A stretch of DNA of 64,000 nt, taken from the NCBI GenBank assembly GCA_963845755.1, contig CAWJTV010000043.1, positions 32,001 through 96,000 of the forward strand, given 5' to 3'. The number at the start of each line of letters is the position of its first letter. Within the stretch, counting starts at the first letter, position 1. Positions 1,611-32,310 of the stretch are shown one piece after another. The position numbers were made by a program, and so were the translations under genes. The notes beneath the pieces are model-generated. The model did not search any database. It saw only the letters and a program-made list of their open reading frames with translations, and was not told the origin of the DNA. The DNA comes from an uncultured Planctomycetota bacterium. Lineage in GTDB: Bacteria > Planctomycetota > Planctomycetia > Isosphaerales > Isosphaeraceae.

Positions 1611-1904
1611 AGGGCTGACCGCGGCCTCGGAAGTGTCGAAGTCGCGATGGAGTGCTCAGTGGAACCCGAGCTTCGTCACACTGGCGTCTTGCTCGCTCGC
1701 CTTGCCGCTCTTGTTGATCGGAGGCGTTTGCTGTCGGCTCCCATCGAAGGAGAGAGCGGCCCCCCTCCTCGCGGAGCCGCATCTCGGTTGGGGCATAGGA
1801 CGTTCCGGGCGTCTGCCCGGCCCAAAGAGAAAACCACGTGTCAGACCGGTTTTCTCGCGGGACCGGGACACACGCCCAGACCTTCGCGGTCGGGAGGACC
1901 GGGC

Positions 1905-2769
1905 TCAGTGGGCAGGCGTTGCGACGTACCCGTGTGTTACGCCGTCAGAATCATCATATGATCCTACGATTTCACCTGACGCGTTGATGGAAAAGATCCC
2001 CGTATTGATCTCGCCGGGCACGTCGATCGTCATGTAGACGCCCCCGCGCAACACGAAGCCATGCTGATTGCCGTCCGCATCGACGTAGAGTCCGACGATC
2101 TCGCCACATTCGTTGATTCCCTGCGCCACGGTCAGCACAGCATGAGGCACGTCGAGCGTCGTGTAGTGCCCTTTGCTCCGCACGAAGCCGTGGCGGTTGC
2201 CGGCGCTATCCACGTAGTCGCCCACGATCTCTCCCTGGTCGTTGATCCCCAGGCCCACCGTCCCTAGAGGTGCCGTCGCACCAGGCACGTCGAACGTGGT
2301 GAAGACACCCTTGCTCCAGATGAAGCCGTGACGCGTCTGGTTGGCATCGCGATAGACTCCCACGACCTGGCACTGCGCAGTTGAGGAACTCGGCCTGCGT
2401 GTGGATCGAGCCGGGCGGGTCGAGCGTGGTGACGACGCCCTTGCTTCGGAAATAGCCGTGGAACGTGCCGCTGGCATCGATGTAAATTCCTGAGATCTCG
2501 CCGTTGGCGTTGATCCCGTTGACACTCGTATAAGTTGCGCCGGGTACATCGATCTGGTTGAGGATGCCCTTGCTAAACACAAACCCATGCGTGCTGCCGT
2601 CCGCATCATCGAACTCTCCCGCAATCGCGTGCGGGCTGTTGCCGTTGACTGCGGTCCGGGTCGATCCGGGCACGTCGATCGTGGTGAAATGGAACTGCGC
2701 CTTCGCCGACCCCGGGAAACCCAGGAACAGGCCCAGCGCCACGGCCGCGAACAATCTCTGAGTCGTCAT
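1905..2769 (-). CDS. Secreted HAF-like repeat protein (frameshift near 2380)
   Basis: Signal peptide MTTQRLFAAVALGLFLGFPGSAKAQ, then repeats of TTIDVPG...GIN..GEIVG.Y.D..G..HGF. Split between ORFs 2206..3027 and 1905..2624. Confidence 0.8.
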
Positions 2770-3140
2770 CGTTGCACTCCTTCGTTGGACGGTCATTGCC
2801 GGACGACTCGGGAACCACTCCCGAAAACGGACCGGCGTGACGTTGTCGTGAGTCGCTCGATTTAGCGGGAGGCTCATGGACTGGTCCTCCCGTGTCTGCG
2901 TTGCCAGGAACCTGGCTGCCGCCCGCGGCGCGCAGACCGGGCGCCCGGCGGTGTGGGCGCTGCTCGAAGGCAGAACCTCACCGGCCACTCTTCTCTGACT
3001 CAGGGGAAATCCGCAGGCATCCGGCACACAGAGGTGACGGGCGATTCGATGTGCTGTGGAATTTTGGTCTTGGTGCCTTCTGGGTCGGCTCTCGCTCGTT
3101 TGTCCCCCAGCAAGGCCACGGCCCGCGGCCTACGTCTTCG

Positions 3141-5990
3141 TCATCGTCCGTCCGGAGGAGTCTGCGGCTTCTGGCGAAGCGTCTTGAGCAACGCCTGGAA
3201 ATCCGAGCGGGGGCGTAGCGAGCGGAGATCCGGATCGCGCTCGATCCAGTCGGCCTCCCTGTAACCACGATCGACGGCTTGCTGCAGCGCAGCCATCGCC
3301 TTGTCGGAGTACACTTGAGATGACTTCTGCATGGGTTTGCTTGGGTCAGCAGGCAGGTTCGCCGTGACTTCGCCGGCCAAGGCGAGCCCGCAGGCCAGAT
3401 CGTAGGCGAACATATGATTTTCGCCGACGATCCGATTGCCAATTGCGATGGCCTGACCAAGAGACTCGAGGGCTTCGCCTGTCTTCCCTTGTTTAGCACG
3501 TGTCTTGCCGATCCCACGCAGAATCATGGCCAGGGCGTTCAGATTCCTCACGTCATTCGGATTCGTCTTGCGCACCATTTCCGCTTGTTCGCGCGCCTTG
3601 GCGAGGGCGTTCAATCCGGCCTCGATCTCGTCCCGGTCAATGAGATACTCGCCAAGCTCGGCAGAACTGGTCGCTAAGACCCTCCTGAATTCGTTGACGG
3701 CCGGATTCTCGACGACGATCCGTTCCATGATCTCCACCGACTCCACGAAGTGTTGTCGGCTCTCTTTCCATCGGCCCAGGATCTTGAAGAGGACTGCCAT
3801 TCCCCGAGTGCTCAAGGCGAGTGTGTAGCGCAACTGCGGATCTTCGGGATGTTCCGCGACGAGAGTCCGCTGGATCTGATTGGCCTGATGCACGGAATCG
3901 AAAGCCTCGGCGGGTTGCCCCTGCGCGACGAGGATCTGGCCCAGATCGCTCAGGGACATACCGAGCTCGATCCGATAGGACAGTTGATTGGGGAACTCCG
4001 CGGAGAGGCTCTCGAGCAGCGCGATAGCCGCCCGTTGGTGATGGATCGCCTCGTCGGGTTTTCCATGACCATGCAAGTTACTGGCCATATAATGATGGGC
4101 GAGGGCAAGATCGGCGCGGATCGCCGAGTCGCGTGGCGGATCCCTCTGGAGCTGGTTCAGAAGGGCGATGGAGCGCTCGAACGAGGTAAGCGACTCGTCC
4201 GATTGCCCGTGATTGGCCTGGATCATCGCCATCCTGACCAGGCAGCGACCCTCGCCCGCGCGGTAAGACTTTCTCAAGGGTTCGGCAGCTGCCTGCGCGA
4301 GCGATTTGTACATTTCCGAGGCCGTCTGGAATGCCTTTAGAGCGTCTTGCTTCGAGCCGATCTGGTCGATGATCTCGCCGACGCGCAGCGTGGCCGCGGC
4401 CAGATCGGCTTGCAGGTCGGTGTCGTCATGATTCTGGCTTACGAAGTCTTCGTAGTACTTCAAGGCTGTTGTCAGCAGCTCCTTGCGGAGTGGTTGCAGG
4501 CCGGGCAAGGGCGAATTGAGCAATCGACTCTCGCTGATCGCCGTCAAGTAATCGTCCACGGCGGCACGGGCGCGGGCCAGGTTGGCTTTTGCATCATCCT
4601 CCGCCCTGATCGCCCGGTCGCGCTGGTTCTGAGCTTCGAGCCGTTGTTTGTTTTCGCCATCGTAAGCCAGGATCGCCTCCGCCTTGGCTCTGTTGGCACG
4701 AACCGCCTGCCAGGCGCTGACGACCGAGGCCAGGATGAGCACAGCGGCGAAAGCGCACACCATCGCCATGACCCCGCGATACTTCCTGGCGAACTTGCTC
4801 AGACGGTAGGCCGACGACGGCGGACACGCCTGCACCGGCTCGTCATCCAGGTAGCGGCGCAGGTCGGCTGCCAACCCGTTCGCGGTCTCGTAGCGTCGAT
4901 TGCGGTCCTTCTCGAGTGCCTTCATCACGATCCAATCGAGCTCTCCCCGCACCAGAACGCTCAGTCTCCGCGGCTCGATGTGTCGACACGCCGCGATACT
5001 CGGCAGCTCCTCGGTCGAGCTCAGGCGCACGCTCGGCCGTGGAGACTCCTCCTCGCGGATCAGTCGCAGCACCTCGAGAAACAAGACGGACTTCAGCCGC
5101 TTGTGCTGCAGCGGGGTCGAGCCGGTCAAGAGCTCATAGATCAGGACTCCCAGGCTGTAGATGTCACTGCGGGTGTCGATGTCGAGCTGGTTCAATTCGG
5201 CCTGCTCGGGGCTCATGTACTCCAGCGTGCCGACCACCGCCCCGAACTCGGTGTACAGCGTCTCGTCGGTCAACCGCGGTCCGGTCGCCTTGGCCACCCC
5301 GAAGTCGATGATCTTCGGCACCGGTTGGCCATCGTACAGGGCGATCAGGACATTCGAAGGTTTCAGGTCGCGATGGATAATGCCCTTCTGGTGGGCGTGC
5401 TGTACGGCCTGGCACACCGGGATGGCCAGCTCGAGTCGCTTGCGAAGCGTCAGCCGGCGCTCGTCGCAGAACGTGGTAATCGGAATACCCTTGACCAGCT
5501 CCATCACGAAGTAGGGGCGTCCCTCTGCGGTGGCGCCGGCGTCAAGGACCTTGGCGATGTTGGGGTGGTCCATGAGGGCCAGTGCCTGGCGTTCGGCCCC
5601 GAACCGGGCCAGGACCTGTCGGCTGTCCATACCGGCCTTGATGAGCTTGAGCGCGACCGTTCGCCGCACGGGCTGGGTTTGCTCGGCCATGTAGACCGTG
5701 CCCATGCCCCCCTCGCCGATCCGCTGAAGGAGTTTATATGGGCCAATGGACTTTCCAGGCCATTCGCCGTCGGTGACTGACGCGTCATTTGCGGTCGCGT
5801 CGGCATCGACGGCCGGGGATTCCAGGAAGCTGCCGGCTGCGACATCATGGCGCAGGAGGTCTTCGATCCCGACGCGGAGCGACTCATCCACGCCACAAGC
5901 GGCGTCGAGGAACGCGGCACGTTGAGCAGGGTCGGCCAGCTCCGCTGCGGCGTTGAAGAGGCGCTCCATGTCCGATCTCGATGCAGCCAC
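3141..5990 (-). CDS. Hanks-type Ser/Thr kinase with TM segment and C-terminal TPRs
   Basis: IGEGGMGTVY, VALK, HRDLKPSN, DFG, YMSPEQ and DIYSLG motifs; hydrophobic segment; TPR-like helices. Confidence 0.95.
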   Translation of the reverse strand: MAASRSDMERLFNAAAELADPAQRAAFLDAACGVDESLRVGIEDLLRHDVAAGSFLESPAVDADATANDASVTDGEWPGKSIGPYKLLQRIGEGGMGTVYMAEQTQPVRRTVALKLIKAGMDSRQVLARFGAERQALALMDHPNIAKVLDAGATAEGRPYFVMELVKGIPITTFCDERRLTLRKRLELAIPVCQAVQHAHQKGIIHRDLKPSNVLIALYDGQPVPKIIDFGVAKATGPRLTDETLYTEFGAVVGTLEYMSPEQAELNQLDIDTRSDIYSLGVLIYELLTGSTPLQHKRLKSVLFLEVLRLIREEESPRPSVRLSSTEELPSIAACRHIEPRRLSVLVRGELDWIVMKALEKDRNRRYETANGLAADLRRYLDDEPVQACPPSSAYRLSKFARKYRGVMAMVCAFAAVLILASVVSAWQAVRANRAKAEAILAYDGENKQRLEAQNQRDRAIRAEDDAKANLARARAAVDDYLTAISESRLLNSPLPGLQPLRKELLTTALKYYEDFVSQNHDDTDLQADLAAATLRVGEIIDQIGSKQDALKAFQTASEMYKSLAQAAAEPLRKSYRAGEGRCLVRMAMIQANHGQSDESLTSFERSIALLNQLQRDPPRDSAIRADLALAHHYMASNLHGHGKPDEAIHHQRAAIALLESLSAEFPNQLSYRIELGMSLSDLGQILVAQGQPAEAFDSVHQANQIQRTLVAEHPEDPQLRYTLALSTRGMAVLFKILGRWKESRQHFVESVEIMERIVVENPAVNEFRRVLATSSAELGEYLIDRDEIEAGLNALAKAREQAEMVRKTNPNDVRNLNALAMILRGIGKTRAKQGKTGEALESLGQAIAIGNRIVGENHMFAYDLACGLALAGEVTANLPADPSKPMQKSSQVYSDKAMAALQQAVDRGYREADWIERDPDLRSLRPRSDFQALLKTLRQKPQTPPDGR

Positions 5991-6021
5991 GGTGTTACTC
6001 CACGTTTGAGTGTCCCGCAGG

Positions 6022-6052
6022 CCAATGCGACGAAATCGACCAATAGGGATCA
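6022..6052 (-). promoter_or_regulatory. Putative ECF-type promoter upstream of kinase (TGATCC-N17-CGCATTGG)
   Basis: Same geometry as the motif upstream of the second kinase at 8204-8234. Confidence 0.4.
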
Positions 6053-6070
6053 GCGCGTCCGTGAGATTCT

Positions 6071-6658
6071 TTATCTCCCTGCGCGATCGTTAACCGGGCC
6101 GCCCCACTCTGCCACCTCGCGGTGCAACCATGCTTTCGCGTAACGCCAGTATCGTTTGGCCGTTACGGCCGACACGCCCAACACATGGGACGCCTCATCC
6201 AGACTTAAGCCGGCGAAGAATCGCAACTGGACCAGGCGGGCCTTGATCGGATCCTCGGCCGCGAGTCTGGTCATCGCCTCGTCCAGGGCCAAGAGTTCCT
6301 CGGGCGGCATCCGGCAGACCAAGGATGCCTCGTCAAAATCGACGCGCAGTCGGCCGCCGCCATGCTTTTCACGGCGTTTGCGCCGGGCGTTTTCGACCAG
6401 GATACGTCGCATCGCTTCAGCAGCCGCGGCGAAGAAGTGGCCACGGTTATCCCAGCCGTCCTCGCGCCGGCCACCGACAAGTCGCAGGTAAGCTTCATGC
6501 ACGAGGTCGGTAGCCTGGAGGGTCAGGCCGGGCTTTTCTCGGGCCAACCTCCGTATGGCCAGCTTGCGGAGCTCCTCGTAGACTAGGGGTAGGAGCTGTT
6601 CGGCGGCCCGCGGGTCGCCCTGCTCGATCGCCGAGAGGATCCGTGTCACTTCGGTCAT
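6071..6658 (-). CDS. ECF sigma factor, TIGR02999-type (kinase-associated)
   Basis: MTEVTRILSAIEQGD..AAEQLLPLVYEELRKLA, TLQATDLVHEAYLRL, HFFAAAAEAMRRILV, VQLRFFAGL. Confidence 0.93.
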   Translation of the reverse strand: MTEVTRILSAIEQGDPRAAEQLLPLVYEELRKLAIRRLAREKPGLTLQATDLVHEAYLRLVGGRREDGWDNRGHFFAAAAEAMRRILVENARRKRREKHGGGRLRVDFDEASLVCRMPPEELLALDEAMTRLAAEDPIKARLVQLRFFAGLSLDEASHVLGVSAVTAKRYWRYAKAWLHREVAEWGGPVNDRAGR

Positions 6659-7185
6659 GGGAGACGGCCATCCTGGCCCATCCGCCCAGGTTGCTATCAT
6701 AGCCCGCTTCGGGGCTCCGTTGCTCCGACTCGACCTGAATAAAACTGCAATGAGGGCGCGGACGGCCAGACTTCATCGTAAATCAGACGGCCAGGAAATG
6801 ATAGGCGCACATGGCTTCGCCGAGCCAGACACGAGGCGACAGGTCACTGTGGCCAGGGAGCCTCGACCACGCTCAGAACTTGCCGGGCACCGCATTCTAA
6901 CGAGTCTCCGGAAGTTGATCCCCGGGGTCATCGATCGTCTCAGTGGCTCTCGTTTTCATCAGCCTCCTCCGACAGCCAATTATCAACGCGCACTCTTCAT
7001 CGTGCGCTTATGAATCATTGCCGGTGGCGGAAGCCCATCAGGAGTCGAGGTTCACGCAGCTTGAGAATCCTTCACTCGTGTGACGGCTAGTCCAGCATCG
7101 GGTCCAGCTCTGCCACAGCCTGCCTTTGGGAAGTCTCGAGAGAATCCCGGCGAACAACTCAACCCCTTTTCTGAATTGACTTAGA

Positions 7186-7232
7186 GGGCGATGAGGGATT
7201 TCGAAACCCCGACATCCTGCGTGTAAAGCAGG
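7186..7232 (-). repeat. att-like copy 3 of tRNA-Val(TAC) 3' half (slightly degenerate)
   Basis: gggcgatgagggatttcgaaaccccgacatcctgcgtgtaaagcagg matches the tRNA from 19972, with one extra T and two substitutions. Confidence 0.9.
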
Positions 7233-7632
7233 CTGACTCTTATGGAATTTGTGGCCCTAAGTGGAATAGCGATATGGCCTTATGACACGGCATTACTGTG
7301 CCACTCGTTTCCAGGATTTCTATAGTTTTGTGACGATTCATAATAGTTTAGCGCGGTCTCTCTGCCATGGCAGAGTTGATCTTCGCCGCGCCCTCACTTC
7401 TCGGCCAGAAGGACCGCAACGTGACACGCGCTCAACACGCTGCCACGTCAACGCGTCAGATGCTCATTCAGGTCCGAGCAAAGACGAAGTGGGTGCGCAA
7501 CTCAGGACGAGTCGCAAGTCAAGGTATCGGGGTCGTCAAGGACGTGGAGCGGGTGAAATCTCTGTTCGACCTATTCGCTGCGGTTCTGGACCAACTTTAC
7601 CGGATTCCGTCGGCGAGGCTAGACTCGGCGTT

Positions 7633-8181
7633 ATGTTCGAGATCACCCACCTTCTCGACGCCGCCGCGGCCGGCGACCGCCAGGCGGCGTCCGACCTGCT
7701 CCCGCTCGTTTACGACGAGTTGCGAAAGCTCGCGGCCGCGCGGATGGCCGCGGAGGCCCCCGGGCACACCCTCGACGCCACCGCCCTGGTGCACGAGGCT
7801 TACCTGCGGCTGGTCGGCGACCAGCAGTTCGACGGTCGAGGGCACTTCTTCGCCGCCGCGGCCGAGGCGATGCGGCGGGTGCTGGTCAACCACGCCCGGG
7901 ACCGCAACCGGCGGAAGCGGGGCGGCGGGCGGAATCGGGTCGACCTCGACCGGCTCACCGGTCCGGCCGTCGCCACCGACGACGACATCCTCGAGCTCGA
8001 CGGCGCCCTCGACCGGCTGGCGAACGAGTTCCCCGTAGCCGCCGAGCTCGTGAAGCTGCGGTTCTTCGCCGGGCTCACGCTGGGTGATGCGGCAGAAGCC
8101 ATGGGCATCCCCCGTCGGACCGCCGACCGGCACTGGTCATTCGCCAGGGCCTGGCTCGCCGACGCGCTCGCCGGAGGGTAA
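7633..8181 (+). CDS. ECF sigma factor, TIGR02999-type
   Basis: MFEITHLLDAAAAGDRQAASDLLPLVYDELRKLA, TLDATALVHEAYLRL, VKLRFFAGL, RTADRHW. Confidence 0.93.
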   Translation: MFEITHLLDAAAAGDRQAASDLLPLVYDELRKLAAARMAAEAPGHTLDATALVHEAYLRLVGDQQFDGRGHFFAAAAEAMRRVLVNHARDRNRRKRGGGRNRVDLDRLTGPAVATDDDILELDGALDRLANEFPVAAELVKLRFFAGLTLGDAAEAMGIPRRTADRHWSFARAWLADALAGG

Positions 8182-8203
8182 TCTCAGAATATTTTGGATC
8201 CCG

Positions 8204-8234
8204 TGGCGCACTCCCGGGCAAGACGGGGCATTGG
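8204..8234 (+). promoter_or_regulatory. Putative ECF-type promoter upstream of kinase (TGGCGC-N17-GGCATTGG)
   Basis: Parallels 6022-6052 and is followed by a GGAGG RBS before ATG 8265. Confidence 0.4.
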
Positions 8235-8264
8235 GAGAGGAAACCCTAACCCGGAGGTGAAAAC

Positions 8265-11200
8265 ATGCCCGACGCCAACCCCGGACTGATGACCCTCTTC
8301 GCCGAAGCCCTGGAACGCACCGACCCGGCCGACCGGGCCGCATACCTGGACTGCGCCTGTGCGGGCGATGCCGCGCCTCCGCCGTCGGGTCGAGGCGCTG
8401 CTGGCCGCCCACGACGGCGCCGGCCGTTTCCTGGAACCCGATGCCACCGGCGTGTCCGGACCCGCGTCAGCCGCAACCCTGGAAGCGACCGGGACATCCG
8501 CGCCGGAAACGCGTCCCCCGCCGGAACCGGCGACCCGGGAAAACACACCCGACGGCACGATCGCCGCGGTCCCGGGCGCCACGCCGGCCGCCTCCCCCGA
8601 TGGGTTCGTCGCGGGCCAGGTCATCGCCGGCCGTTTCACGCTGCTGGAGGTCCTCGGCGAGGGGGGGATGGGCACGGTTTACCGGGCCGAGCAGACCCAG
8701 CCGGTCAAGCGGCCGGTGGCCTTGAAGCTGATCAAGGTCGGCATGGACTCGCGCACGGTGCTGGCCCGGTTCGACGCCGAACGCCAGGCTCTGGCCTTGA
8801 TGGATCACCCGAACATCGCCCGCGTTTACGACGGCGGCACCACTGCGGCCGGCCAGCCGTTCTTCGTGATGGAGCTGGTCAAGGGCGTCCCGATCACCGA
8901 GTACTGCGACCGGCATCGGCTCCCGGTGCGGGCCCGGCTGGAGCTGTTCGTGGCCGTCTGCCAGGCGGTCCAACATGCCCACCAGAAGGGGATCATCCAC
9001 CGCGATCTGAAGCCCTCCAACGTCCTGGTCACCGAGGTCGACGGCCGGCCCACCCCCAAGGTCATCGACTTCGGCGTCGCCAAGGCGACCGAATTCCGGC
9101 TCACCGAGCAGAGCCTGGCCGACACCGGGGCGATCGTCGGCACGCCGACGTACATGTCGCCGGAGCAGGCCGACCCGTCGTCGATGGACATCGACACCCG
9201 CACCGACGTCTACGCGCTGGGCGTAATCCTCTACGAGCTGCTGGCCGGCTCGCCGCCGCTCGACGCGAACCAGTTCAAGCGCGGGGCGCTCCTGGAGATG
9301 CTGCGGATGGTGCGGGAAGTCGACCCGCCCCGGCCAAGCACCAAGGTCAGCACGGCCGAGGCCCTGCCCAACATCGCCGCCAGCCGCGACATCGAGCCGG
9401 CGCACTTGAAGCGGGCGCTCACGGGTGACCTCGACTGGATCGTGATGAAGGCGATCGAGAAGGACCGCTCCCGGCGGTATGAGACGGCGAACGGCTTCGC
9501 GGCCGACGTCCTGCGCCACCTGGCGAACGAGCCCGTCGTGGCCGCGCCGCCGAGTCGGGCCTACCGGATGCGGAAGTTCGTCCGGAAGAATCGTGGCCAG
9601 GTGATCGCTGCGAGTTTGGTGCTGGCGACGCTCGTCATCGGCATCGTGGGGACCACCCTGGGCTTGTTCCAGGCCAGGCGGCAGGAGCAGATCGCGCAGA
9701 CCTCGGCGACGAATGAGGCGAAAGCACGCAGCAAAGCAGAAGACCTCGCGACGAAGGAGGCGAGGGCACGCGGGCAAGCGGACGAACGAGCCGAGCAGCT
9801 CGCCCGCGAGGATTACGTCAACCGCGTCAACCGGGCCTATCGCGAGGTGGAAGACGATAACGTCGCGCTGGCCGAGGACCTGCTGCACGGTTGTCCGCCC
9901 GAACGTCGCGGCTGGGAGTGGCATTCCGTCAAGAGGCTCTGCCGCTCGGAGCGACTCGTCCTGAATCCGGCCCAGAGCGTCAACGCCGTCGCCTACAGCC
10001 CGGACGGGAGCTGGATCGCGGCAAGCTCGGGCGCGGTGGTATTCCGGGGGATGGGGACCCCGAGAGATGAATCGGCCGTGAACCTCTGGGATGCGGCGAC
10101 GGGCCGGCGGCGACTGGTCCTTCGCGGGATCAAAGGCTGCGTCTATGGCCTGGCCGTGAGCCCGGATGGAAAACGGATCGCGGTCGGAAGCGGGACCGAA
10201 CGCCCCAAAGTCGAAGCCCGACTGTCGGTTTGGGATGCGGCGACCGGCCATGTCGTATGGTCCCGGGACGAGCCGGAATTCGAGGCCATGAGCGTCGCCT
10301 TCAGCCCTGACGGCAAGTCGGTCGCCGTGGGCTTCGGGTTCTACCTCGGCGATTCCGTCGGCAAGGTCAAGGTCTGGGACGCCGCCACCGGTCGAGAGCG
10401 ATCGACGTTCACCGGCCCGCCGGGGTGGGGAGTGAACAAGATCGCCTTCCATTCCGACGGTCGTCGACTCGCCGCCGCCGGGTCGGGGGCACCCAGATCT
10501 GGGACATCGTCGCCGGATCCAAGGTGCGGGATCTGGTCGGCCACGACCGATGGGTCCTGGGTGCCGCCTTCAGCCCCGACGGCAAGTGGCTGGCGACGGG
10601 TGGGTGGGACCGGACGGTCAAGCTGTGGAATGCCGACACCGGTGCGGAGGAGCGGACGATCTTCGCCCACGAGGGCTACGTACTCGATCTGGCCTTCAGC
10701 CCCGACGGCCGGCGCCTCGTCACGACGAGCGAGGACCGCAGCGTCAGGCTCTGGGAGATCCCCTCAGGACGCCGCGTCGCGACCTACCATGGCCACACCG
10801 ACTTTGTCCAGGCCGTCGCCTTCCGGCCGGACGGCCGTGAGCTGGCGAGCGCCAGCCTGGATGGCTCGGTCAGGGTCTGGAACCTGCGCACCAGCCGCCC
10901 GGTCGTCTTTGGCGGGCACTCCGGCTGGGTCGAAACCCTGGCGTTCCGGCGGGATGGCCGGCGGATCGTCTCGCTCGGAGGCAGACAGACGGCCCAGGGC
11001 GAGGTGGCGATGGGCTGGAACCCGGAAACCGGCGAGCTCGACCCCTCCCTGAGCGGGGTCGACCTCACGGCCCCCTCGTCCCTGTTCGTGGCAGGCACCT
11101 CGATGGGCGAAAGGCTCTCGAAAGGGGAAGTGACCGCGAAAAGCGCCGACGGAAAGCTGGTGGTCCAGCTCAGCCAAAACAGCGGCTACGGTGAAACGTC

Positions 11201-12533
11201 GCGCAGCCGGGAGTACGAGGTCAGCTCGGTCGTGATCCGGGATGCGGCGAGCGGCCGGGTGCTCCATACGCTGATTGGCCACTCGGCCGATGTCACCTGC
11301 GCCGCGTTCAGCCCGGACGGTCGGCGGCTGGCGACGGCCAGCTTCGACCGGACGATCAAGCTCTGGGACACGGCGACGGGCCGGGACGTCTTCACGCTCC
11401 GAGGCCACACCGCGGGCGTGGTCGCCTTGGCCTTCAGTCCCGACGGGAACCGGATCGCCTCGGGCGGCATCGATCACACGGCCCGAATCTGGGACGCGAC
11501 CCCGCTCTCGACCGAGGTCCTGCGAGCGGACGACGACCGTTATCGGCGAAAGATCGCCACGCTGGAGCAATTGAAGGGCGCGGAGGACGACGCTGAGCGG
11601 GGCAAGATCCTGGCCAGCGGTGGCCAGTGGGGTATGGCGGCCGAGGCGTTTGCCAGGGCGGTGGAGAAGGAACCTGAGAAGATCCAGCTCCGCTACCAGC
11701 TCATCGATGCGCTTTTGCAGGCAGGTGATCGAAGCCAGGTCGGGGCCGCCTGCGACGATTTCCTCAAGCGGTTCGGGAACAGCGGCGATCCCATCCGGGA
11801 CTTGCTAGTCACCGGGCTATGTCGGTTGGCTTCGCAGGCGATCACCGATCCGGAGAAGCGCCTGGCCGTTCACGCGTTCGCCCTGGCGAGCAACGGCGAG
11901 GAGCGGGTTCTGGTCCTTGGCCGGTACGGACAGTGGGACCGGGTTGCCTCCGTATTCACCAAATTCGTGGAAGCGAAATATATCGACGACAATCCCGAGG
12001 GACTCGAATTCTTCCAGATCCAACTTCTGTCCCTCGTGGAGTCGGGCGACCTGCCGGGATATCGGTCCGCGGCGGGCAAGCTCGTTTCGCAATACAGCAA
12101 GACCTCCGATCCCAACTCACTGAACAACGCGGCCTGGTACTGTACCTACGCCTCCGATGCCGTGGCCGATCTCGCCGTCCCGGTCCAGATGGCCGAGAAG
12201 GCGCTCGCGGGCTTTCCACCCGAGCAGAAGCGACTCGTCGTCAACACCCTGGGCGTCGCGCTGTATCGCGCGGGGCGGATCGACGAGGCGATCGTCCGAC
12301 TCGACGAGAGCGTGAAGGCATCCGGGGGCGTCGGCCTTCCCCAGGATTGGGCCTTCCTCGCGATGGCCCACCACAAGAAAGGGAACGGCGACGAGGCCCG
12401 CCGCTGTCTCGAGAAGCTCCGATCCCACAAGCCGGATGAGAAGGCCGGCTTCTCGACGGATGTTGTGGAGTGCCGGATGTTCCACCGGGAGGCCGAGGCG
12501 CTGCTCCGGGAGCCTCCTCGCGCGCGCCCTTGA
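8265..12533 (+). CDS. Ser/Thr kinase with TM, WD40 repeats and TPRs (frameshifts near 8375 and 10490)
   Basis: Kinase motifs in ORF 8359..11052; GH...V..VAFSPDG..LA...D.T.KLWD repeats and TPRs in ORF 10425..12533; N-terminus in ORF 8265. Confidence 0.9.
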
Positions 12534-13189
12534 TCCGACTACGCGAGCGGCCCCGGGGTGGCTTGCGGCGGCGGACTCGTGCAGGGCTCGGAGCATCCGG
12601 CAGACTCTCGGACCAGCACAACGTCTCTCCGTACGAGTCCCGCCCGCATACCGACGGTGCGCATCACATCAGCCTGATCCTCTGTCTGGCCGACAATCAA
12701 GCGAAAAACCGCCCCAGTGACTCCGATGGGGGACGCGAAGGACACTCGCCGCAACCCCCTGGCATGTTCCCGCGCCGTGCGTGTTCTTGATGCCCGATAC
12801 TGGCTGGCAACGTCAACCAGTACGGCTTGATTGTCTGGTCGACCTACAAGGAACCGGGGCACTGATCATGTTTGAAGCGCGCCCCGCCGTGCCGGCGCAG
12901 TCCAACGGGTAACGACCGCGTGACCGGGATCCCATCGGCTTCCCGCGTCGTGTCATCATAGGTATCTGCCGAACAAAAGCCCGGAGTCCGTGAAATTCGA
13001 ACAACCCCTGCAAGATGGCCATCCGTAGACGGTTGCATTGGGTCACCAAAGCGACCGAAGACGAAACGTGGCGAAAGGCGCATCGGAGTAAGTCTGGGGA
13101 GTAAAATATCAGCGGCAGCCTGAGCCGGAGCGGATTCAAATATAGGTGCCGAGGAAATACGTGGCGTGACTGCCGGCAGGCTGCGTCGG

Positions 13190-13420
13190 TTCGACATGAA
13201 TGGGGATGTCTGGGAGTGGTACTGGGAGGGAAATGAGAAATACGACGCGAAGTCGCCAGCCGTCGATCGGTCGGCGCAGCGGGGGCCTTCGACCGCGTGG
13301 TTTGGGGCGGGTGCTGGGACCTCCGCGCCATCAGCACGCGGGCGTCGTTCCGGAACACGGGAACGCCGGAGTGCCGGGGCTACAGCATGCTCGGTTTTGC
13401 GTAATCCGAGGCCAGTATGA
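13190..13420 (+). pseudogene. Formylglycine-generating enzyme (SUMF1/FGE-sulfatase) C-terminal remnant
   Basis: FDMNGDVWEW...KSPAVD, then in a shifted frame DRVVWGGCW...RASFRN...LGF. These resemble the DM.GNVWEW / RV.RGG.W / R / GFR motifs. There is no N-terminal part. Confidence 0.65.
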
Positions 13421-13583
13421 GGAATAGGGGAAGCGTAGACCTTGATAAGCTCATTTGTGGGACAACTTCCGTGTCTCTGCGTCGTGGAGTGACATAATCG
13501 TGTCGACCTCACAATGGAGAGCGCATTCGAGAAACCCAGGCGCTCTACCTCGACATAACTCCCTGAATACACAACGTTTACAA

Positions 13584-13631
13584 TGGGCGATGAGGGATTC
13601 GAACCCCCGACATCCTGCGTGTAAAGCAGGT
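13584..13631 (-). repeat. att-like copy 2 of tRNA-Val(TAC) 3' half
   Basis: tgggcgatgagggattcgaacccccgacatcctgcgtgtaaagcaggt; one mismatch to the tRNA from 19971. Confidence 0.95.
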
Positions 13632-15942
13632 TCAAAATCCGCGATTTTTCGGTTGCAAGCTATTCTTTGTTAAGGCTTTAGGGTTAGACCATCCGCCAAG
13701 ACCGTTTTCCAGGCAGTCGAAAATTTTGCCGGGTTTTTCTGACTCTTATCGTGCTGTGTCTGCACGTGCAGAGCTGCACGCGACGCTGGAAAGTTTCGTC
13801 CGGCGAACTCTCCGAACTGCGCCGCCAGTGCCTCGATGTCAATTTGCGAAGTGTGCGCCGCGAAGTCAAAGTTGCCGATCAGACTGACATCCCGCCAAGC
13901 GACGGGCGACGTGCCCCTGAGAATCTTGATCGCTCCTGGTCATCGGCTGCGAGCTTCTGCTCGTACACTCGACAAGAGCAGGATAGTGTAGTAGATGATG
14001 GCGTTTGCGATGAGCCGTGAGCACTCGTTCCAGATCTACTTTATCTATCAGCGGAACATGTTCCAATCAGGTAAAAATGTGAATGACCGCAATGCTGGCT
14101 CCGGACCAGTCGTTCGATTTCACTCCCGGCCACAAGCGGACCCCTGGTTATTGGTCACACCGACAATGCGGCGCGCAGATCGTGTCCAATCTCATTTCTG
14201 CGGAACGTCGGCTCAAGCTATTCTGAAGGTTGTCTCGGCCCTGATCGTCGACGAACAGGCACGGGTCGCCGGATGGGCCGTTGAGCATTCGCAGTTCCCG
14301 GAACGCCCTCGGACGGGGCATGAATCACCACCCTCTTCGCCGGCGCAATCCAACTGACTAAACTATGGCGCGGCGTCGTTGTCGAGCCTGTGTCCGACTA
14401 CACCGCCTATCCCCGTTCTGTTTTTCGAGGTTTTCATGCCACATCGACGGTTCCTAGCCCTCATCGTCATGACTGGAGTCAGCGGCCTCCATGGGGTCGA
14501 CACACGGGCCGACGAGCCGCCGTCCTACGAGGTGTACGCTGTCCGGTATGGCACGTGCCCCGGCTGTCCAGTCTCTTTTCTCGTGCAGGGGGCCGAACCG
14601 CAGCGGAAGGTCGACCTCGCCATGACTTTCTGGGTGCTGAAAGGCCCAGACGGGCGGACGGTCCTGGTCGATGCCGGGTTCTACCGGCCGCAGTTCTTCA
14701 AGGAGTTCGAAGGGATCGCCGACTACACTCGACCCGACCGGGCGGTTGGGCGACTCGGGATCAAGCCGGAAGAGGTCACCGACGTCATCGTCACACACAT
14801 GCACTCGGATCACGTCGATGGTGTCGATTTGTTTCCGAAGGCAACGGTCTGGATCCAGAAAGATGAGTTCAATCATTACACGCGCGAGGTCAAGCCGCCG
14901 TCCGGCAAAGGCGCGCCGACCGAGCTGGATGACGTCTCGGCCCTGGTGAAGCTGAACACCGAGGGCCGTGTTCGTCTGGTCGACGGCGACGCCAAGGAGA
15001 TCATACCGGGAGTGACGATTTACACCGGAGGGAAGCACACGTTCGCGTCGCAGTACGTGGGCGTAAATACGAAGTCGGGCCGCATGGTGGTGGCGTCGGA
15101 CAACGTCTATCTGTACGAGAACCTCGACAAGCACATGCCGATCACGGCTACGCTCGACGCCAAGTCAAACCTGGCTGCGCAGGACCGGATGAAGCAGCTC
15201 GCGACCAACCCCCGATTGATCATCCCGGGACACGACCCGGAGGTGTTCGTCCGGTTCCCGAAGCCGGGGAATGGTGTGGCTCGAATCGAGTAGGACTGAG
15301 AGCGGGAATCGTGGTGTACGCGGACCCTCCCTTCACGAGGAGCGAAGGGACATGCACTGCAACGCCAGCAGCTTCCAGTGGCCGGATGTTGACCACAAGC
15401 TTAACCTATTATGAGCAAAACGGTTCGGGTGTTTCGGCAATGCCCGAGCTTGGGAGATCCTCCCTGCGGTGCAGATGTTTCCAACTCCGACGGCGCTACA
15501 TCCCGAAGACCCGCATGCGGCTCCAGCGCATGTCGCTCATCGACCGGCGGGAAACCGATCAGGGGGTTCCAGTGCCTGGCTGTCTTTCCAGCCAGTCGCG
15601 CTGGGCGACGAGCTCATGATGATGTGGCGACTCGTCTTCCCAGGCTTTCACGGCTTTCCTGGACACCTTCGATTTGCGACGAATTTGTGGGTGTCTGGAT
15701 TCGCGCGTCTGGATTTCCCTGTCGGGCGCAAGCTCAATTGCAAGAGCCGGATTAGCCAGAGTGATGACCTGCGATCAGACAGGCTCTTGCAACTCTGCAC
15801 AGTTTTTCCGACGCAAACCATTGCTATAAAAAGGCTTATGAGTATCACACAACTGACAACTCTGCACGGTGCAGATGTCGAGTCTTAATTTATTCGTCGA
15901 GATTTGTCGACGTAACATACTGTAACTTAACGACTTGCGTAA
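13632..15942. mobile_element. Integrase-less tRNA-Val insert B (MBL hydrolase cargo)
   Basis: Bounded by tRNA 3'-half repeats; TCTGCAC palindromes near both ends. Confidence 0.7.
14436..15293 (+). CDS. Secreted metallo-beta-lactamase-fold hydrolase, N-acyl-homoserine lactonase family
   Basis: Signal peptide, LVDAG, THMHSDH, GKHT, ASD and IPGHDP motifs. Confidence 0.88.
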   Translation: MPHRRFLALIVMTGVSGLHGVDTRADEPPSYEVYAVRYGTCPGCPVSFLVQGAEPQRKVDLAMTFWVLKGPDGRTVLVDAGFYRPQFFKEFEGIADYTRPDRAVGRLGIKPEEVTDVIVTHMHSDHVDGVDLFPKATVWIQKDEFNHYTREVKPPSGKGAPTELDDVSALVKLNTEGRVRLVDGDAKEIIPGVTIYTGGKHTFASQYVGVNTKSGRMVVASDNVYLYENLDKHMPITATLDAKSNLAAQDRMKQLATNPRLIIPGHDPEVFVRFPKPGNGVARIE

Positions 15943-15988
15943 TGGGCGATGAGGGATTCGAACCCCCGACATCCTGCGTGTAAAGCAG
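15943..15988 (-). repeat. att-like copy 1 of tRNA-Val(TAC) 3' half
   Basis: tgggcgatgagggattcgaacccccgacatcctgcgtgtaaagcag; one mismatch to the tRNA. Confidence 0.95.
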
Positions 15989-16166
15989 TTTGGTTCCCAA
16001 TGATTCTCTCGCCGCAACTTATTGAAAAACATGGCTTTACGCAATAATAAGTCACTGAGAACGTTTTCCAGGGACTCGCAAGGTTTCCCTGGTTTTACGC
16101 AGTTTTGTGAGGGTTTTGGTGCAATGCACTGAAACCGGTCAAATAATGTTTGATTGTTGTTGATGT

Positions 16167-16484
16167 CTACAATAGCTTCCATCTGCACGGGCTATGATGC
16201 CAGGATGAGGCATCGACTCTGGTTCGGGGGGAAGTGAAGGCGGAGGGCGATAAAGGCGCGTGTGCGGCGTAGAGTTTTCTGGTCACTCGAATGAGGTTCG
16301 AGTGGCCGCTTCGGTTGATCTCTGGTTCTATTAATCGTAACTGAGAATGCTCGGAGTTATCGATGAGTTTTCGAGCGGCCTCTTCGGGGCGTGATTGGAG
16401 TTGCCTTAAGTTCTCGAGACTGATACCAACGTCGTCCCACGTGAGACGGTTCTTGTAGACATCCAAACAATATTGCTCTGCCAA
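16167..16484 (-). CDS. Possible small hypothetical protein (lower-GC segment)
   Basis: 105-aa ORF directly downstream of the kinase; no recognisable motif. Confidence 0.25.
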   Translation of the reverse strand: MAEQYCLDVYKNRLTWDDVGISLENLRQLQSRPEEAARKLIDNSEHSQLRLIEPEINRSGHSNLIRVTRKLYAAHAPLSPSAFTSPRTRVDASSWHHSPCRWKLL

Positions 16485-16533
16485 AGAGGCGAATCACTCG
16501 GTATCGACAAAAAGTATTAAATGGAAGGAGCGA

Positions 16534-19481
16534 TCATGGTTTCGGGATCGCCTTGGCGGCCTGGACCGGCTTCGTAGCGGCCTCGATCGTCGCGCGGACG
16601 TCGGCCCAGAGCGATTCCCAGGCCGCCCGCTCGTCAGCGAGGAGGTTGAGCTGGGGGTCGCCGGCCCGGACCATGGCAAGGTCGGCGTCGGAGAGCCACA
16701 ACGACAGCTTGTCGGCGGAAGCCTTCCGCTCGGCAGGCTGGTCGGAATTCGCCTGCGCGGCTCGAACGGCGAGTTCGGCGCGGAGCCAGGCCAAGGCCTT
16801 CCCGCGGAGTGCGGCCCGCTCGGCCGGTACGTCCGGGGCGTCGACGCCCCGGCCGATCGAGGCCAGGAGGGCGACGCATGCGGCGTCATATCGATCCCCG
16901 GAATTCGGAACCTCGGCCAACTTCGGGTCTCCGGCGAAGGCGCCGTCGAAGAGGCGAGCGGCCGCAGCATATTGGCGCCGGTAGGACAAGGCGCACAGGC
17001 GAGCGAACTCGAGGCCCTCGGCCGGGGTGGCCGGGGCCGACCGTCCGGCCACGACGTCGTCGAGACGAGGCAAGAGATCCGCGGCCCGCCGCACGCGGTC
17101 CAAGGCCCTCGCCGAGCCAAGGTCCTTGGGATCGAGCTCGACGAGCTTGCGGAACTCGGCCTCAGCAGCCGCCTGGTCACCTTTCTGCGCAAGAGACTCG
17201 CCAAAATCTTCCGAGAGAAACCGTCCCCTGGGTTGACCTCGACGGTCCTCCGGAAGAGCTGCTCGGCCCCGGCGTCGTCCCCCCTGTCGTGGAGGATGTA
17301 GCCGAGGTTGTTCATGGCGAGCGTGAAGCGAGGGTTCAGCTCGATAGTCCTGCGATACTGGGACTCGGCGGATTTCAGGTCCCGCTTCCCGTACTGGAGG
17401 ATCTGCCCCAGCACGAAGTGCCCGACCGCGTTGTCGGGGTTGAGGGCGATCAGGGTCCGCGCGTAGCCGACGGATTCCTCAATGCGGACCGGGTCCGTGG
17501 GATATCCCTCGCTCAAGGCCCAGGCCAGATCCCTCAGGAGGGTGCGATCGGACGGGGATCTCTCCCAGGCGTGCTGGAGGATTCGGGCGCCCTCCCCGTA
17601 GGATCTGCACCGCAACACCAGGGCATCGCCGATGAGTACCGCCGTCGGCGGAGGCAGGTCGAGCGCCGAAAGGCGGCCGGCCAGGCGGTTCAACGCCTCG
17701 CATCCGCCCGCGATGGCGGCCCGGATCTCCCGGCGGACCGGATCTCCATCGACGAGATCGGCCGCCGCCCTGACTCGGTTGACCGTCGGGTTGGCCCGAT
17801 AAAACGCGGAGGTATGCCACCTGTCGAGCGCCTTCAACAGCGCGCCGCGGAGGCCGGGACGCTCGGCACGCACGGCGGCGGCCAGCGTCCGCGGGTCGCC
17901 GCCGGCGGGCAATCCGGCCTCCTCGAACGCCAAGTGGTAGAGTTGACGCTTCTTCTGGTCGTCGATCAGGCCTCCGGCCGTCCCGGCATCCGCGCCCTCG
18001 GCATTCTCGAGGGCGGCCAGTAATCTCGCGTCGCGTCGGGACCCGGTCAGGCGGGAGCGGAGCGCGCTGGCCGCCTCGCCCGTCCTGGCCCTGACGTCCG
18101 CGCCGCCGACCTCGGCGACTGCACTCTCGGCTTGGGCGACGGCGGCCTCGGCCTGCTCCAAGAGCTTGACGGCCGTGTTGGCCTCGAACAGCTCCGCCGG
18201 GTCGATCGCCCCGGCCTGGGCCTCGAGCTCCTCGGCTCGGCCGAGGGCGACGCTGGCGAGGCGGTCGGCATCGTTGCGGCGTCCTTCGACCTGGTTACGG
18301 ATGATAAACGCGGCCGAGACGCCGACGACCAGAAGGGCGAGTGCGCCGACGGCGACCGCCCGTCGCGCCCGTCGCTTCTGCCGTTCGGCCCGGGATTCGG
18401 CCTCGAGGCGGGCGCGGTCCCCCTCGGCCCGGACGCGGTCGAGTTCGGCCTGGCGGGCACGCTCCTCGGCCTCGGCGCGAAACGAAGCGATCGCTCGGGC
18501 GACCGCGCCGGCGTCGCTAGGGCGGTCGTCGCGCTCGGGGTTGAGGCAGGACTTGCAGAGGGCAACCAGCTCGGGCTCGGCGCCGCTGGCGTCGAGCCGG
18601 GCAAAGCAGTCATCGAGCTTGCCCCGGGCGGCCAGCACGCGGATCGCCTCGGCATTGCCGCCGACATAAGGGGGTTGGCCGGTCAGGATCACCGCCAGGA
18701 CCGCCCCGAGGCCGAAGACATCGCTGCGCTCGTCGACCTCCTCAACGGCGCCGACGGCCTGCTCGGGCGCCATGTATGCCGGCGTGCCCAGCACGCTGCC
18801 GGACTGGGTCTGCGAGCCGTCGGAGTCGTCGTGGGCCGAGAGGATCTCGGTGGCCATCCGTTCTTCGGAGTCGGACGGCCGGGTCTGTCCCGTCGGCCGC
18901 CCGAGCACCTTGGCCAGGCCCCAGTCCATCACCTGGACCTCGCCAAACGAACCTACCATGATGTTCTGCGGCTTGAGATCGCGGTGGATCACGCGTCGGG
19001 CATGGGCGTAGGCGACGGCCTGGCAGACCTGCTCGAAGGCGGCCAGGAAACGGCCGCGGTCGGCCCCGGGATTCGGGCGCTCGGCGACGAGGTCGCCGAG
19101 GTTCTGCCCCTTGATCAGCTTCATCGCCAGGAACGGCCGGCCACCGGGCAGGGTGCCGAGGTCGTGGATCGGCGGGATGCCCGGGTGCTGGAGCTGGGCG
19201 GAGATCCGGGCCTCGTCCACGAACCTCCGGGCCACGGCCGATCCTGTATGGTAACGGCTCTGGAGAATCTTGACCGCGACCTGCCGCCCGAGCGTCCGAT
19301 CGTCTGCCAGGTAGACCTCTCCGATCCCACCCCGCGCGATCATCTCGCGCAGGTCGTAGCGAAAGCTCGGACCGGCGGCGACATCGGGCGCCCTGTGACC
19401 TTCGCCGGCTCCGGAGGGCTCCTGATTCACAACCCCGAGGGTGACTTGCGCGTCCGCGTCAGGCTTCAAATCCGGGGGCAT
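16534..19481 (-). CDS. Ser/Thr kinase with TM and TPRs (frameshift near 17170)
   Basis: IARGGIGEVY, VAVK, HRDLKPQN, DWG and YMAPEQ motifs. The C-terminus (RYDAAC..LR.KAL.WLRAEL) is in ORF 16534..17103. Confidence 0.9.
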
Positions 19482-19666: not shown

Positions 19667-19864
19667 ATGCCCTCCGCCGCATAGCCCGGCAATCAAGAAG
19701 CCCTGAATCCAGGCGGGCAATCCAGGCTCGGCCGTCTGCTCGGCTAGCACTACAGCACCGTCTGGCGGAAGCTAAACGGCAAATCGCAGATCACGCGAAG
19801 AGACGAAATCGCGATCCGGCACGCCGTAGTTTTAGTGCAAGAGGAAAGCGTTGTACAGCAATAA
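19667..19864 (+). pseudogene. Degraded small Cro/XRE-like helix-turn-helix gene
   Basis: Manual translation MPSAA*PGNQEALNPGGQSRLGRLLG*HYSTVWRKLNGKSQITRRDEIAIRHAV...; fits the Q..LA..LG....TV.R..NG pattern, with two in-frame TAG. Confidence 0.5.
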
Positions 19865-19969
19865 CTTACGGGTGACTTGGGGGGGAATATCAGTGCAATG
19901 GTACTCAATCCATCCTAATTCTTTAGTGGGAAACGTAGCTGTAAGTCCTTGTCTCTCTAAAACTTGAAT

Positions 19970-20043
<74 letters not shown>

Positions 20044-20117
20044 ATTGTCGTGAGACGATCCCATTTGGTCCACGTTAGCGTTCTTGCCCGGAGAATTCCA
20101 TCCGAAAAGTTACCACC

Positions 20118-31342: not shown

Positions 31343-31547
31343 GCGATCCGGATCGTCGGCTCATGACACGTGATTCGATTTCGAAGGTTGGCCACAACCC
31401 GAAGGCCATCGAGAAGGCCCTTGCAAGATCCGGACAAAACGACCTGTCGCGGATCTCTTAATGCAATCCAGCCCGTTGACAACCTCGACAGGCGCCAGAA
31501 TCCACGGCGGAAATGCGAGACGATGTCCCTCCTCCGTGGGGGTCGCC

Positions 31548-32087
31548 ATGAAACGAATCGGGCTCTCGGTCACCTGCCTGATGGCCCTTGTCGCGATCGT
31601 CGCGATTGATACCGCGGTGATCCCGGCCCTCCAACGTGTGATAATCGCGTCGACACGGATTGGTCTGTTCTCGGCGCTGGCGATGGCGCATGTCCTGGCG
31701 CTTTGTCTGGTAATCGTGGTCTCGAGCCTTGTTCGTCGCGGTGAGGTTGCCCTCTCTCCCGTCATGTTTCTGTTATTCGGTGGTACGGCGATGCTGCTCC
31801 TTATCACCATCGCTGACCTGGCACCTCATTTCTTCTGGGCGTACGTGAACAACACGGCCGGCCTGCTGGATCCTCCAGGAAACTTCAGCATCGCCAATCT
31901 CGGGATCACCGAGCTCGCCTTCGTCCCGGCCGTACTCGTTTGCAGTGTGTTGACCCTGCCGCTCCTGGTTCCCGGGTGGCTCGCGGCCCGGGCAACTCGC
32001 GGTTATCGCCTCAAACTCCGGAAAGGACCGAATGCCGCGGCCGCCGCGGAACGTCCGTCGCCCGACCAACCGCGAGGCAGTCAATGA
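31548..32087 (+). CDS. Small polytopic membrane protein, paralog 1
   Basis: MKRIGLSVTCLMALVAIVAID; about 4 TMs; clear paralog of 32311..32847. Confidence 0.8.
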   Translation: MKRIGLSVTCLMALVAIVAIDTAVIPALQRVIIASTRIGLFSALAMAHVLALCLVIVVSSLVRRGEVALSPVMFLLFGGTAMLLLITIADLAPHFFWAYVNNTAGLLDPPGNFSIANLGITELAFVPAVLVCSVLTLPLLVPGWLAARATRGYRLKLRKGPNAAAAAERPSPDQPRGSQ

Positions 32088-32310
32088 GCCAAGGATCCAG
32101 CGCCCGTTGCGCTCCGGATGCACGCGAACGAGGCGATCCGAGAACCTGGCGTGGAGCGGCTCGCTCTTGTAGAGCGGCATGAGGCAAGCAACGCAGCCTT
32201 TCGCCGGGGGGGACTCTGCATCTAACCCGGCCTATTGACAACCGTGGTGGACCGGTCCCAGAATTCACGCGGCAAGTCCGAGACGATGTCCGACTGCCAG
32301 GGGGTATGCC

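Follow-up and report, generated by a model that had tools for sequence, protein, structure and literature searches.

We analysed a window of 64,000 nucleotides (positions 32,001 to 96,000 of the forward strand of contig CAWJTV010000043.1) from an uncultured planctomycete of the family Isosphaeraceae, which contains an intact tRNA-Val(TAC) gene followed by an array of small units that end in partial copies of this tRNA. Beside each of the three copies in the window lie three motifs at matching offsets: a 25-bp box, the sequence TTCCAGG and a palindrome. This combination very probably represents the attR (P-type) arm, on the side away from the tRNA, of a lambda-like system that is run by tyrosine integrases in Isosphaeraceae. 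Our overall reading, to which we assign a probability of about 75%, is that such attachment (att) arms are carried by non-autonomous, helper-moved cassettes that resemble cis-mobilizable elements (CIMEs). The cassettes most likely borrow their integrase from related prophages or larger islands, and the array in this genome probably stays dormant as long as no helper with the matching arm type comes in. Below, G000 denotes the source genome (14.3 Mb; the assembly is 88% complete), C43 the window's contig, and other G-numbers relatives.

The 3' part of tRNA-Val recurs at four places and thereby delimits four units: A (4.0 kb), B (2.3 kb), C (6.4 kb) and D (9.1 kb). These att cores begin at the anticodon stem, from tRNA positions 27–29 onward, as expected of lambda-type att sites with a crossover region in the anticodon loop. 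The target gene and the cores are listed below in window coordinates, unless stated otherwise.

19970–20044, minus strand: intact target gene tRNA-Val(TAC), which forms attL of unit A
15942–15988, minus strand: core 1, tRNA-Val 3' fragment from the anticodon stem, end of unit A and start of unit B; 97.9% identical to the tRNA
13583–13629, minus strand: core 2, end of unit B and start of unit C; 98% identical to the tRNA
7185–7231, minus strand: core 3, end of unit C and start of unit D; 93.6% identical to the tRNA
G000:C43:30014–30060, outside the window (about 2 kb to its left): fourth core, end of unit D; 85% identical to the tRNA and the most decayed, with the same distal arm

Since the tRNA is encoded on the minus strand, the motif-bearing ends, originally described as the left ends of cassettes, are in fact their tRNA-distal (attR) ends. 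No match to tyrosine (PF00589) or large serine (PF07508) recombinases was found on contig C43.

Geometry and distribution of the distal arm

The distal arms of the three units that end within the window consist of the following elements, in which the assignments to proteins are putative.

16015–16039, no strand: unit A, symmetric 25-bp box YAA-N4-TT..AA-N4-TTR, putatively IHF-like
16065–16116, plus strand: unit A, six T-tracts with a 10-bp period starting from TTTCC, a candidate track for a filament of a recombination directionality factor (RDF) or for bent DNA
16113–16135, no strand: unit A, inverted pair of arm-type sites, TGCAC..AAAC type
13656–13680, no strand: unit B, box
13706–13757, plus strand: unit B, phased T-tract track
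13759–13772, no strand: unit B, inverted arm-type pair, TGCAGAG type
7258–7282, no strand: unit C, box
7308–7359, plus strand: unit C, phased T-tract track
7360–7375, no strand: unit C, inverted arm-type pair, GGCAGAG type

All coordinates of the original prediction are exact. The box, of the form YAA-N19-TTA, starts at 7258, 13656 and 16015, that is, at +27 from the last G of AAAGCAG; TTCCAGG follows at 7309, 13707 and 16066 (+78, or 51 after the box start), and the palindromes are centred at 7367.5, 13765.5 and 16124 (109.5, 109.5 and 109 after the box start). The spacing did not recur in shuffled or unrelated DNA: none of 20,000 composition shuffles reached the 43 three-way identical columns observed, and box plus TTCCAGG at a spacing of 51 has three matches in 28.5 Mb (both strands of G000), all of which are the window copies, with 0 or 1 match for each of 22 other spacings from 40 to 62. 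The flanks had been described as otherwise divergent. Instead, they are colinear homologues, 43–50% identical and gap-free over 150 bp, with identities between the three arms of 48–60% in the box, 31–46% in the spacer (+52 to +77) and 20–35% beyond +150. We attribute the matching offsets to common descent combined with intolerance of insertions and deletions.

The motifs are conserved in relatives in part. Among 11 non-self arms selected on core and box, TTCC is present at +78±1 in 10 and the full TTCCAGG in only 5, while an inverted repeat is kept in all 11, not only as TGC..GCA but also as GGTTC/GAACC, GGAG/CTCC or GCTAC/GTAGC. TTCC opens a series of six T-tracts, placed at +77, 87, 97, 107, 117 and 127 with a period of 10.0 bp (25 arms), a feature overlooked before. 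The box is symmetric, with internal TT (30/36 and 29/36) and AA (31/36 and 27/36). Its likeness to the IHF consensus YAANNNNTTGATW is loose, with 4, 2 and 1 mismatches in the three boxes of the window, and binding of IHF is plausible. G000 encodes one protein that we take to be IHF-like (C12:57666) and one presumably HU-like protein, judged by their motifs. The motifs are AT-rich (44–48% GC, compared with 63%).

Searches of 121 family genomes showed that this arrangement is shared. A query of core and box with a free gap of 24–28 gave 14 matches in 7 genomes, 13 of them with a gap of 26, and TTCC near +78 and an inverted repeat near +136 emerged in the non-self matches although neither was part of the query; the motif spacing is thus present at homologous att sites of relatives. 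A position weight matrix with the core excluded, built from 13 stretches of non-self DNA (including one intact-tRNA flank and two weak arms), picks seven loci in G000, all adjoining tRNA 3' fragments (four Val, Pro-CGG, Ala-GGC and Lys-CTT). A core-free pattern identified 19 arms in 14 family genomes, compared with 1 control match, and 19 of 19 lie beside tRNA 3' fragments; in 400 other genomes of the phylum the arm was not found with this pattern, which gave 5 non-palindromic matches there compared with 10 in the control. The arms co-occur with tRNA fragments, not of Val alone, and are tied to a clade of tyrosine integrases described below.

In 58 non-redundant arms, the distance from the anticodon to TTCC is 74–77 (36 arms) or 84–87 (22 arms) and never 78–83. 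Both classes occur at the same tRNAs (Ala-TGC, Pro-CGG and Val targets), in keeping with helical phasing of the arm. An array of eight tRNA-Ala(TGC) copies in G029 (C5:4510981–4542950) carries arms in both helical phases.

Cognate integrases and the ends of integrase-less cassettes

The candidate partner of these arms is encoded in relatives. In the G052 element at tRNA-Pro, the tRNA is followed by a direct repeat of the half-site of the element's distal palindrome, and then by a PF00589 integrase gene and a convergent HTH_17 gene. Homologues of this integrase are found in 36/121 family genomes. At 27 of 30 loci a tRNA or tRNA fragment comes immediately before the locus; one such tRNA is Val(TAC) in G071, where the integrase shows the R/K/HxxR/H/Y motifs that we take to be catalytic in tyrosine recombinases. 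In front of the integrase genes stand direct repeats whose motif types are those of the distal palindromes, in an attL design consisting of a half box, the direct repeat and an integrase start 60–170 bp from the tRNA. Both ends were found for six integrase elements (51–116 kb), and in each of them the attL repeat type equals the distal palindrome type, in one case weakly; the other ends of the integrase elements of G071, G051, G019, G008 and G063 were not found in the DNA stretches examined. Two elements were annotated (90 of 114 predicted open reading frames scanned), of which one, with genes for terminase, portal, capsid, tail and endolysin, is a prophage and the other a ParA/Rep/helicase island. 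The elements include an apparently complete 55-kb prophage with a clade integrase and arm at tRNA-Pro(CGG) in G022 (C4:225585–280171).

Arm class follows the N-terminus of the integrase. Among 17 integrases with arm labels read by eye, it changes once on a tree built from residues 1–55 (in 91% of bootstrap trees) and three times on a tree of the core-binding and catalytic domains (0%), as expected if the N-terminal domain reads the arm site (PMC2951348). With the 10.0-bp T-tracts and the two distance classes, this tie upholds the earlier identification of the motifs as lambda-type att arms with helical phasing; the att class of lambda-type (heterobivalent) tyrosine integrases has been described (PMC4383910). 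Integrases behind fragments or tRNAs at three further loci (L071; L081 and L054) were also considered and belong to other types, not to the cognate clade.

The units of the window share the distal arm family with the integrase elements, and their proximal ends have another design and no integrase remnant. The same was found more widely: PF00589 had no match in 145 of 151 predicted open reading frames of small cassettes (34 intervals, about 31 units, 10 genomes), and no integrase remnants were detected in the arrays by hidden Markov models. This Pfam scan left out one G029 interval whose tyrosine recombinase was rejected as a candidate, as it is part of an insertion sequence (IS)-like recombinase/transposase insertion and the interval lacks an arm. 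IS insertions are common in the cassettes. The proximal ends in the window are as follows.

19829–19966, minus strand: unit A, box 19942–19966, arm site 19889–19898, second box at about 19844–19868, arm site 19829–19840; type of its own distal palindrome (8/9)
15791–15937, minus strand: unit B, box 15913–15937, arm sites 15858–15875, box 15814–15838, arm site 15791–15800; type of its own distal palindrome (8/9)
13518–13580, minus strand: unit C, box 13556–13580 and GAGCGC..GCGCTC inverted repeat 13518–13546 ('class II'), no strong arm site
7106–7183, minus strand: unit D, one GGCAGAG site 7106–7116 and a degenerate box at about 7160–7183

The first proximal design, shared by units A and B and by relatives, consists of box, AT-rich stretch, arm site, box and arm site, unlike the attL of the integrase elements. 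At ends of the second, class II design (GAGCGC..GCGCTC), no integrase match was found in 17 of 17 loci. Of 28 cassettes, 9 have a proximal arm site of their own type (at least 8/9), compared with 3.3 by permutation (p=0.0007).

These features suggest the following mechanism. Units would insert into the anticodon loop of tRNA-Val(TAC), and each newcomer would displace the older ones outward, which yields the order tRNA-A-core-B-core-C-core-D-core. The symmetric box may be where an IHF-like host protein bends the DNA, the six phased T-tracts may be coated by an excisionase-type protein, and the N-terminal domain of the integrase would bind the inverted pair 136 bp out and bridge back to the core. 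The geometry of the arm, its phasing and the matching of its sites are observed; the protein assigned to each part is putative. HTH_17-type proteins bind DNA once per turn by indirect readout, and RDF filaments with one protomer per turn have been described for the related BldC (PMC11963761); because of this once-per-turn binding, the T-tract track is proposed as an RDF filament site. The integrase would be supplied by large relatives, i.e. prophages and plasmid-like islands. Where both arms match, as in units A and B, the helper may move units in trans, and C-type ends may be moved in cis, within a composite excised from the helper attL to the cassette attR.

Regulation, movement and alternative explanations

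Many cassettes are further marked by a conserved promoter-like motif and a small helix–turn–helix (HTH) gene, both of which have decayed counterparts in unit A.

16141–16209, plus strand: decayed version of a promoter/operator motif that is conserved in HTH-marked cassettes, 76–84% identical to relatives' copies; a sigma-70 scan finds no site
19668–19864, plus strand: broken small Cro/XRE-like HTH gene pointing at attL of unit A, with an in-frame stop at 19745–19747 and a damaged 5' part

An intact homologue of the unit A gene is present at G000:C22:189307. HTH genes of this kind, encoding 60–70 residues, are found in 42/121 genomes, often next to the first proximal design. Of 30 such loci, 24 have the end of a tRNA at most about 500 bp away, and no full integrase separates the two. 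Among 20 HTH regions examined, 16 delimit units of 1.5–6.2 kb at Ala-CGC/GGC, Asp, Val-GAC/CAC/TAC, Leu-CAG/TAA, Pro-TGG and Lys; 10 of these 16 bear the arm family described here, and none contains a full-length integrase (one weak 49-residue match). The promoter-like motif is present in 13 of the 20 regions, and small phage-type genes often lie between it and the HTH gene. Mismatches in the HTH gene by codon position (0.20/0.16/0.34) indicate purifying selection. The protein is modelled as an XRE/Cro-like four-helix bundle, with no Foldseek match at E<=0.001. As this fold is not a winged HTH, a role as excisionase was rejected as first choice, and the model makes it more likely that the protein regulates, as a repressor, the cassette promoter than that it directs excision. 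All contigs spanning position 19746 in four public runs differ from the window at the stop codon, so the break is either recent or an error.

The other G000 arms found with the matrix adjoin fragments of Pro(CGG) at C5:732789–735173, Ala(GGC) at C22:187609–189641 and Lys(CTT) at C45:61686–63670; the C22 locus has an intact promoter and HTH gene, and the C45 locus has the promoter motif. A phage origin of the promoter/HTH module was considered and rejected: in IMG/VR, the promoter motif has no match, and the HTH gene has none with a single sequence and three loci with an alignment, beside which no integrase was found. One of these viral homologues (L241:4930–8174, on a 143-kb viral contig) ends an operon of an RNA-binding protein, RtcB and an HD hydrolase, and is adjoined by a DarB-like gene.

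Sequence identities show past movement. An integrase-less end is 94–99% identical over 700 bp between G034 and G043, compared with 78–82% for gyrB and 78% for the recA region of these genomes. Similarly, beta-helix/ECF/kinase cargo (ECF, extracytoplasmic function sigma factor) at Ala(TGC) in G029 and Val(TAC) in G043 shows 92% and 85% identity versus 71–75% for gyrB and 83% for recA, and unit D shares blocks of 80–87% and its proximal end with a unit of G034. Integrase-less cassettes have thus moved between genera; these identities establish movement and not its route, which may have been in trans, in cis or before integrase loss.

Several observations weigh against a system that is active here or moved as proposed. 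G000 has a single member of the integrase clade, with only 34% identity and next to a damaged tRNA site of C40, so that the assembly contains no close cognate integrase, and no helper adjoins this array. Core identity to the tRNA drops with distance (98, 98, 94 and 85%), one box matches the IHF consensus weakly (4 mismatches), and 19 of 28 cassettes, among them units C and D (7/9), lack a strong proximal arm site of their own type; the Pro cassette of G046 has mismatched ends. In the integrase elements, the distal match of G015 is a single half-site, and the 116-kb element of G052 holds further integrases and may be composite. The tree comparison is small and its labels were assigned by eye, and the arms are akin by descent, which means that the 58 arms and 28 cassettes are not independent trials. 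The public runs contain at most 26% of the sequence words, and the uncovered parts are uninformative; no att-to-att joint was present among the joints listed from their contigs, beyond which there are 356 further joints, and in run X1 the order of units A and B is unchanged, at about 96–97%, which indicates stable inheritance. Finally, gap-free common inheritance alone suffices for the matching offsets. The original prediction had inferred that the arms are maintained by selection in a functional system rather than decaying at random. This is supported across the family but not for this genome at present, in which the missing close integrase, the broken regulator of unit A, the decaying cores and the lack of an att-to-att joint among those listed speak against activity.

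Some of these features would also be expected if the units were plain relics, that is, large autonomous prophages or islands that lost the integrase and most of their body after insertion and whose arms are alike by inheritance, decaying and immobile. The shared family of distal arms, the outward decay of the cores, the broken HTH gene and split kinase gene, the frequent IS insertions and the strong arm sites missing from most proximal ends agree with this. However, the proximal ends are not truncated helper attL sites and follow two other conserved designs, with no integrase match in the 17 class II loci, no full-length integrase in the 16 delimited HTH cassettes and no remnant detected in the arrays. 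Purifying selection on the HTH genes and the near-identity of integrase-less ends across genera also oppose this explanation, which we judge unlikely; an origin of the units by simple decay is doubtful.

An integron-like host system, in which a sedentary chromosomal recombinase or XerCD shuffles cassettes at tRNA sites with no mobile helper, is very improbable. The arm types match the integrases of mobile prophages and islands and track their N-termini, and the sites are 150-bp arms with a tRNA core rather than attC hairpins or dif-like 28-mers. Small integrase-less cassettes in polarised arrays, which reach 7–8 units, and 43 PF00589 matches elsewhere in G000 would suit such a system, but the arrays themselves lack a recombinase and the integrase clade is absent or distant in array-rich genomes (none at 1e-30 in G029, G030, G036 and G046). 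Least credible of all is that the motifs are expression signals or a structured RNA or single-stranded DNA hairpin (promoter, terminator, oriT). The AT-richness and a palindrome whose pairing is kept while its sequence changes could be explained in this way; against it stand the fixed helical phase to the anticodon loop and the recurrence of half-sites as direct repeats at the element's other end, which a hairpin would not need. No promoter or terminator was predicted at 15900–16400 (Rfam was not searched). Helper-moved cassettes remain our preferred reading. As a tentative extension, for which we claim less than even odds, Isosphaeraceae may host dedicated integrase-pirating cassettes: units of 1.5–6 kb that never encode a recombinase, with attL and attR kept and tuned to prophage and island integrase specificities, and with a self-regulated promoter and Cro-like gene upstream of which small phage-type genes are swapped. 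Such cassettes would ferry kinase/ECF/WD40 modules between genera and at least nine tRNA targets, in an integron-like gene capture with a phage-borrowed recombinase.

Relation to known systems and further features of the region

Integrons and clusters of attC sites lacking integrases (CALINs) are polarised arrays of small recombinase-free cassettes with attC hairpins, an attI site and the integrase IntI. The arrays described here differ in having double-stranded intasome arms and a tRNA core, and no IntI at the array; in the window, tRNA fragments and 150-bp arms mark the borders of the units, with no recombinase on C43 (an attC model was not run).

The integrase elements are closest to the type of KplE1/IntS and ICEMlSym IntS (PMC2951348, PMC11963761), with an integrase behind and co-oriented with the tRNA, arm-type sites on both arms, an HTH_17 RDF candidate and a core at the anticodon loop. 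In contrast to these, the system described here has arm-type sites in an inverted pair 136 bp out, a strict series of six T-tracts, a symmetric box, two length classes one turn apart, a planctomycete integrase clade, and, in the window, units without an integrase. With CIMEs and tandem accretion, as in ICESt1/ICESt3 (PMC5704250), and with the integrase-less ssrA islands of Dehalococcoides (PMC3146451), the arrays share tandem units at one target, the lack of integration and transfer genes, retained att sites and a proposed co-mobilisation by helpers. Units A to D each have a core and a distal arm, only A and B have full proximal arms, and genes for integration or transfer are absent from all of them. 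By definition, CIMEs are decayed integrative and conjugative or integrative and mobilizable elements (PMC5704250), whereas many units here have their own attL design and a conserved promoter/Cro-like module that is found across several arm specificities and nine tRNA targets; prophages are among the helpers. Tycheposons of Prochlorococcus (bioRxiv 10.1101/2020.12.28.424599) are likewise small tRNA-stacked cargo elements with partial tRNA copies between them, in which new units displace old ones inward; they carry an integrase and often replication genes, and the cassettes carry neither. The window units also differ from satellites of the tycheposon or phage-inducible chromosomal island kind, which have their own integrase and usually replication or packaging genes.

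A description of this planctomycete arm and integrase system was not found in the literature searched, which included few subscription papers and no supplements. Islander counts tandems only where every unit has an integrase (PMC4383910), and integrase-less arrays are therefore invisible to such island finders; the arm models detect them with almost no background. Since arms, the matching integrase clade, a candidate RDF and natural length variants of 10 bp are all available, mobilisation of integrase-less islands in trans versus in cis is directly testable, and several arm specificities of one kind of site-specific integrase are on offer for planctomycete genetics. If the proposed reading is correct, it would provide a route for the spread of Ser/Thr kinase, ECF sigma and WD40/TPR genes, which are frequent cargo, in very large genomes. 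The cargo of the window units is as follows.

16494–19481, minus strand: unit A, Ser/Thr kinase-TPR protein
14379–15293, plus strand: unit B, metallo-beta-lactamase-fold hydrolase
7633–12533, plus strand: unit C, ECF sigma factor and a Ser/Thr kinase-WD40 gene in three frames (real breaks or assembly errors)
387–6700, minus strand: unit D (part within the window), ECF sigma factor, kinase-TPR protein and DUF4915

Unit D further includes a beta-helix protein. The kinase-WD40 gene of unit C is split at 8265–12533, either as a real pseudogene or through long-read error, and one contig of public run X3 is one letter shorter near 8375; core 3 also deviates mainly by homopolymer lengths. Two ECF-sigma/kinase pairs (3141–6700 and 7633–12533) stand back to back around core 3, and their kinase parts are 75% alike. 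Beside the proximal end of unit C, positions 13190–13400 contain a decayed, frameshifted fragment with DMNGDVWEW and WGGCW motifs, presumably like the C-terminus of a formylglycine-generating-enzyme domain, with no Pfam match for the one frame tested.

Elsewhere in the window, direct repeats at 31487–32966 with a spacing of about 760 bp are 76–83% alike and probably represent a tandem gene duplication. In G000, contig C48 starts with a tRNA-Val fragment (positions 1–47) that is nearer to relatives' Val(GAC) (97.9%) than to the tRNA of the window. A short repeat miscalled as tRNA-Ser(CGA) has 1,979 BLAST matches in G000 on many contigs (e.g. C5:88075–88400 and C49:13855–14069), often in tandem runs with a 21-bp period. 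Finally, about 36 tRNA genes, including a second tRNA-Val(TAC), lie on one strand within 3.4 kb at C41:590256–593662, and a smaller cluster is located on C20.

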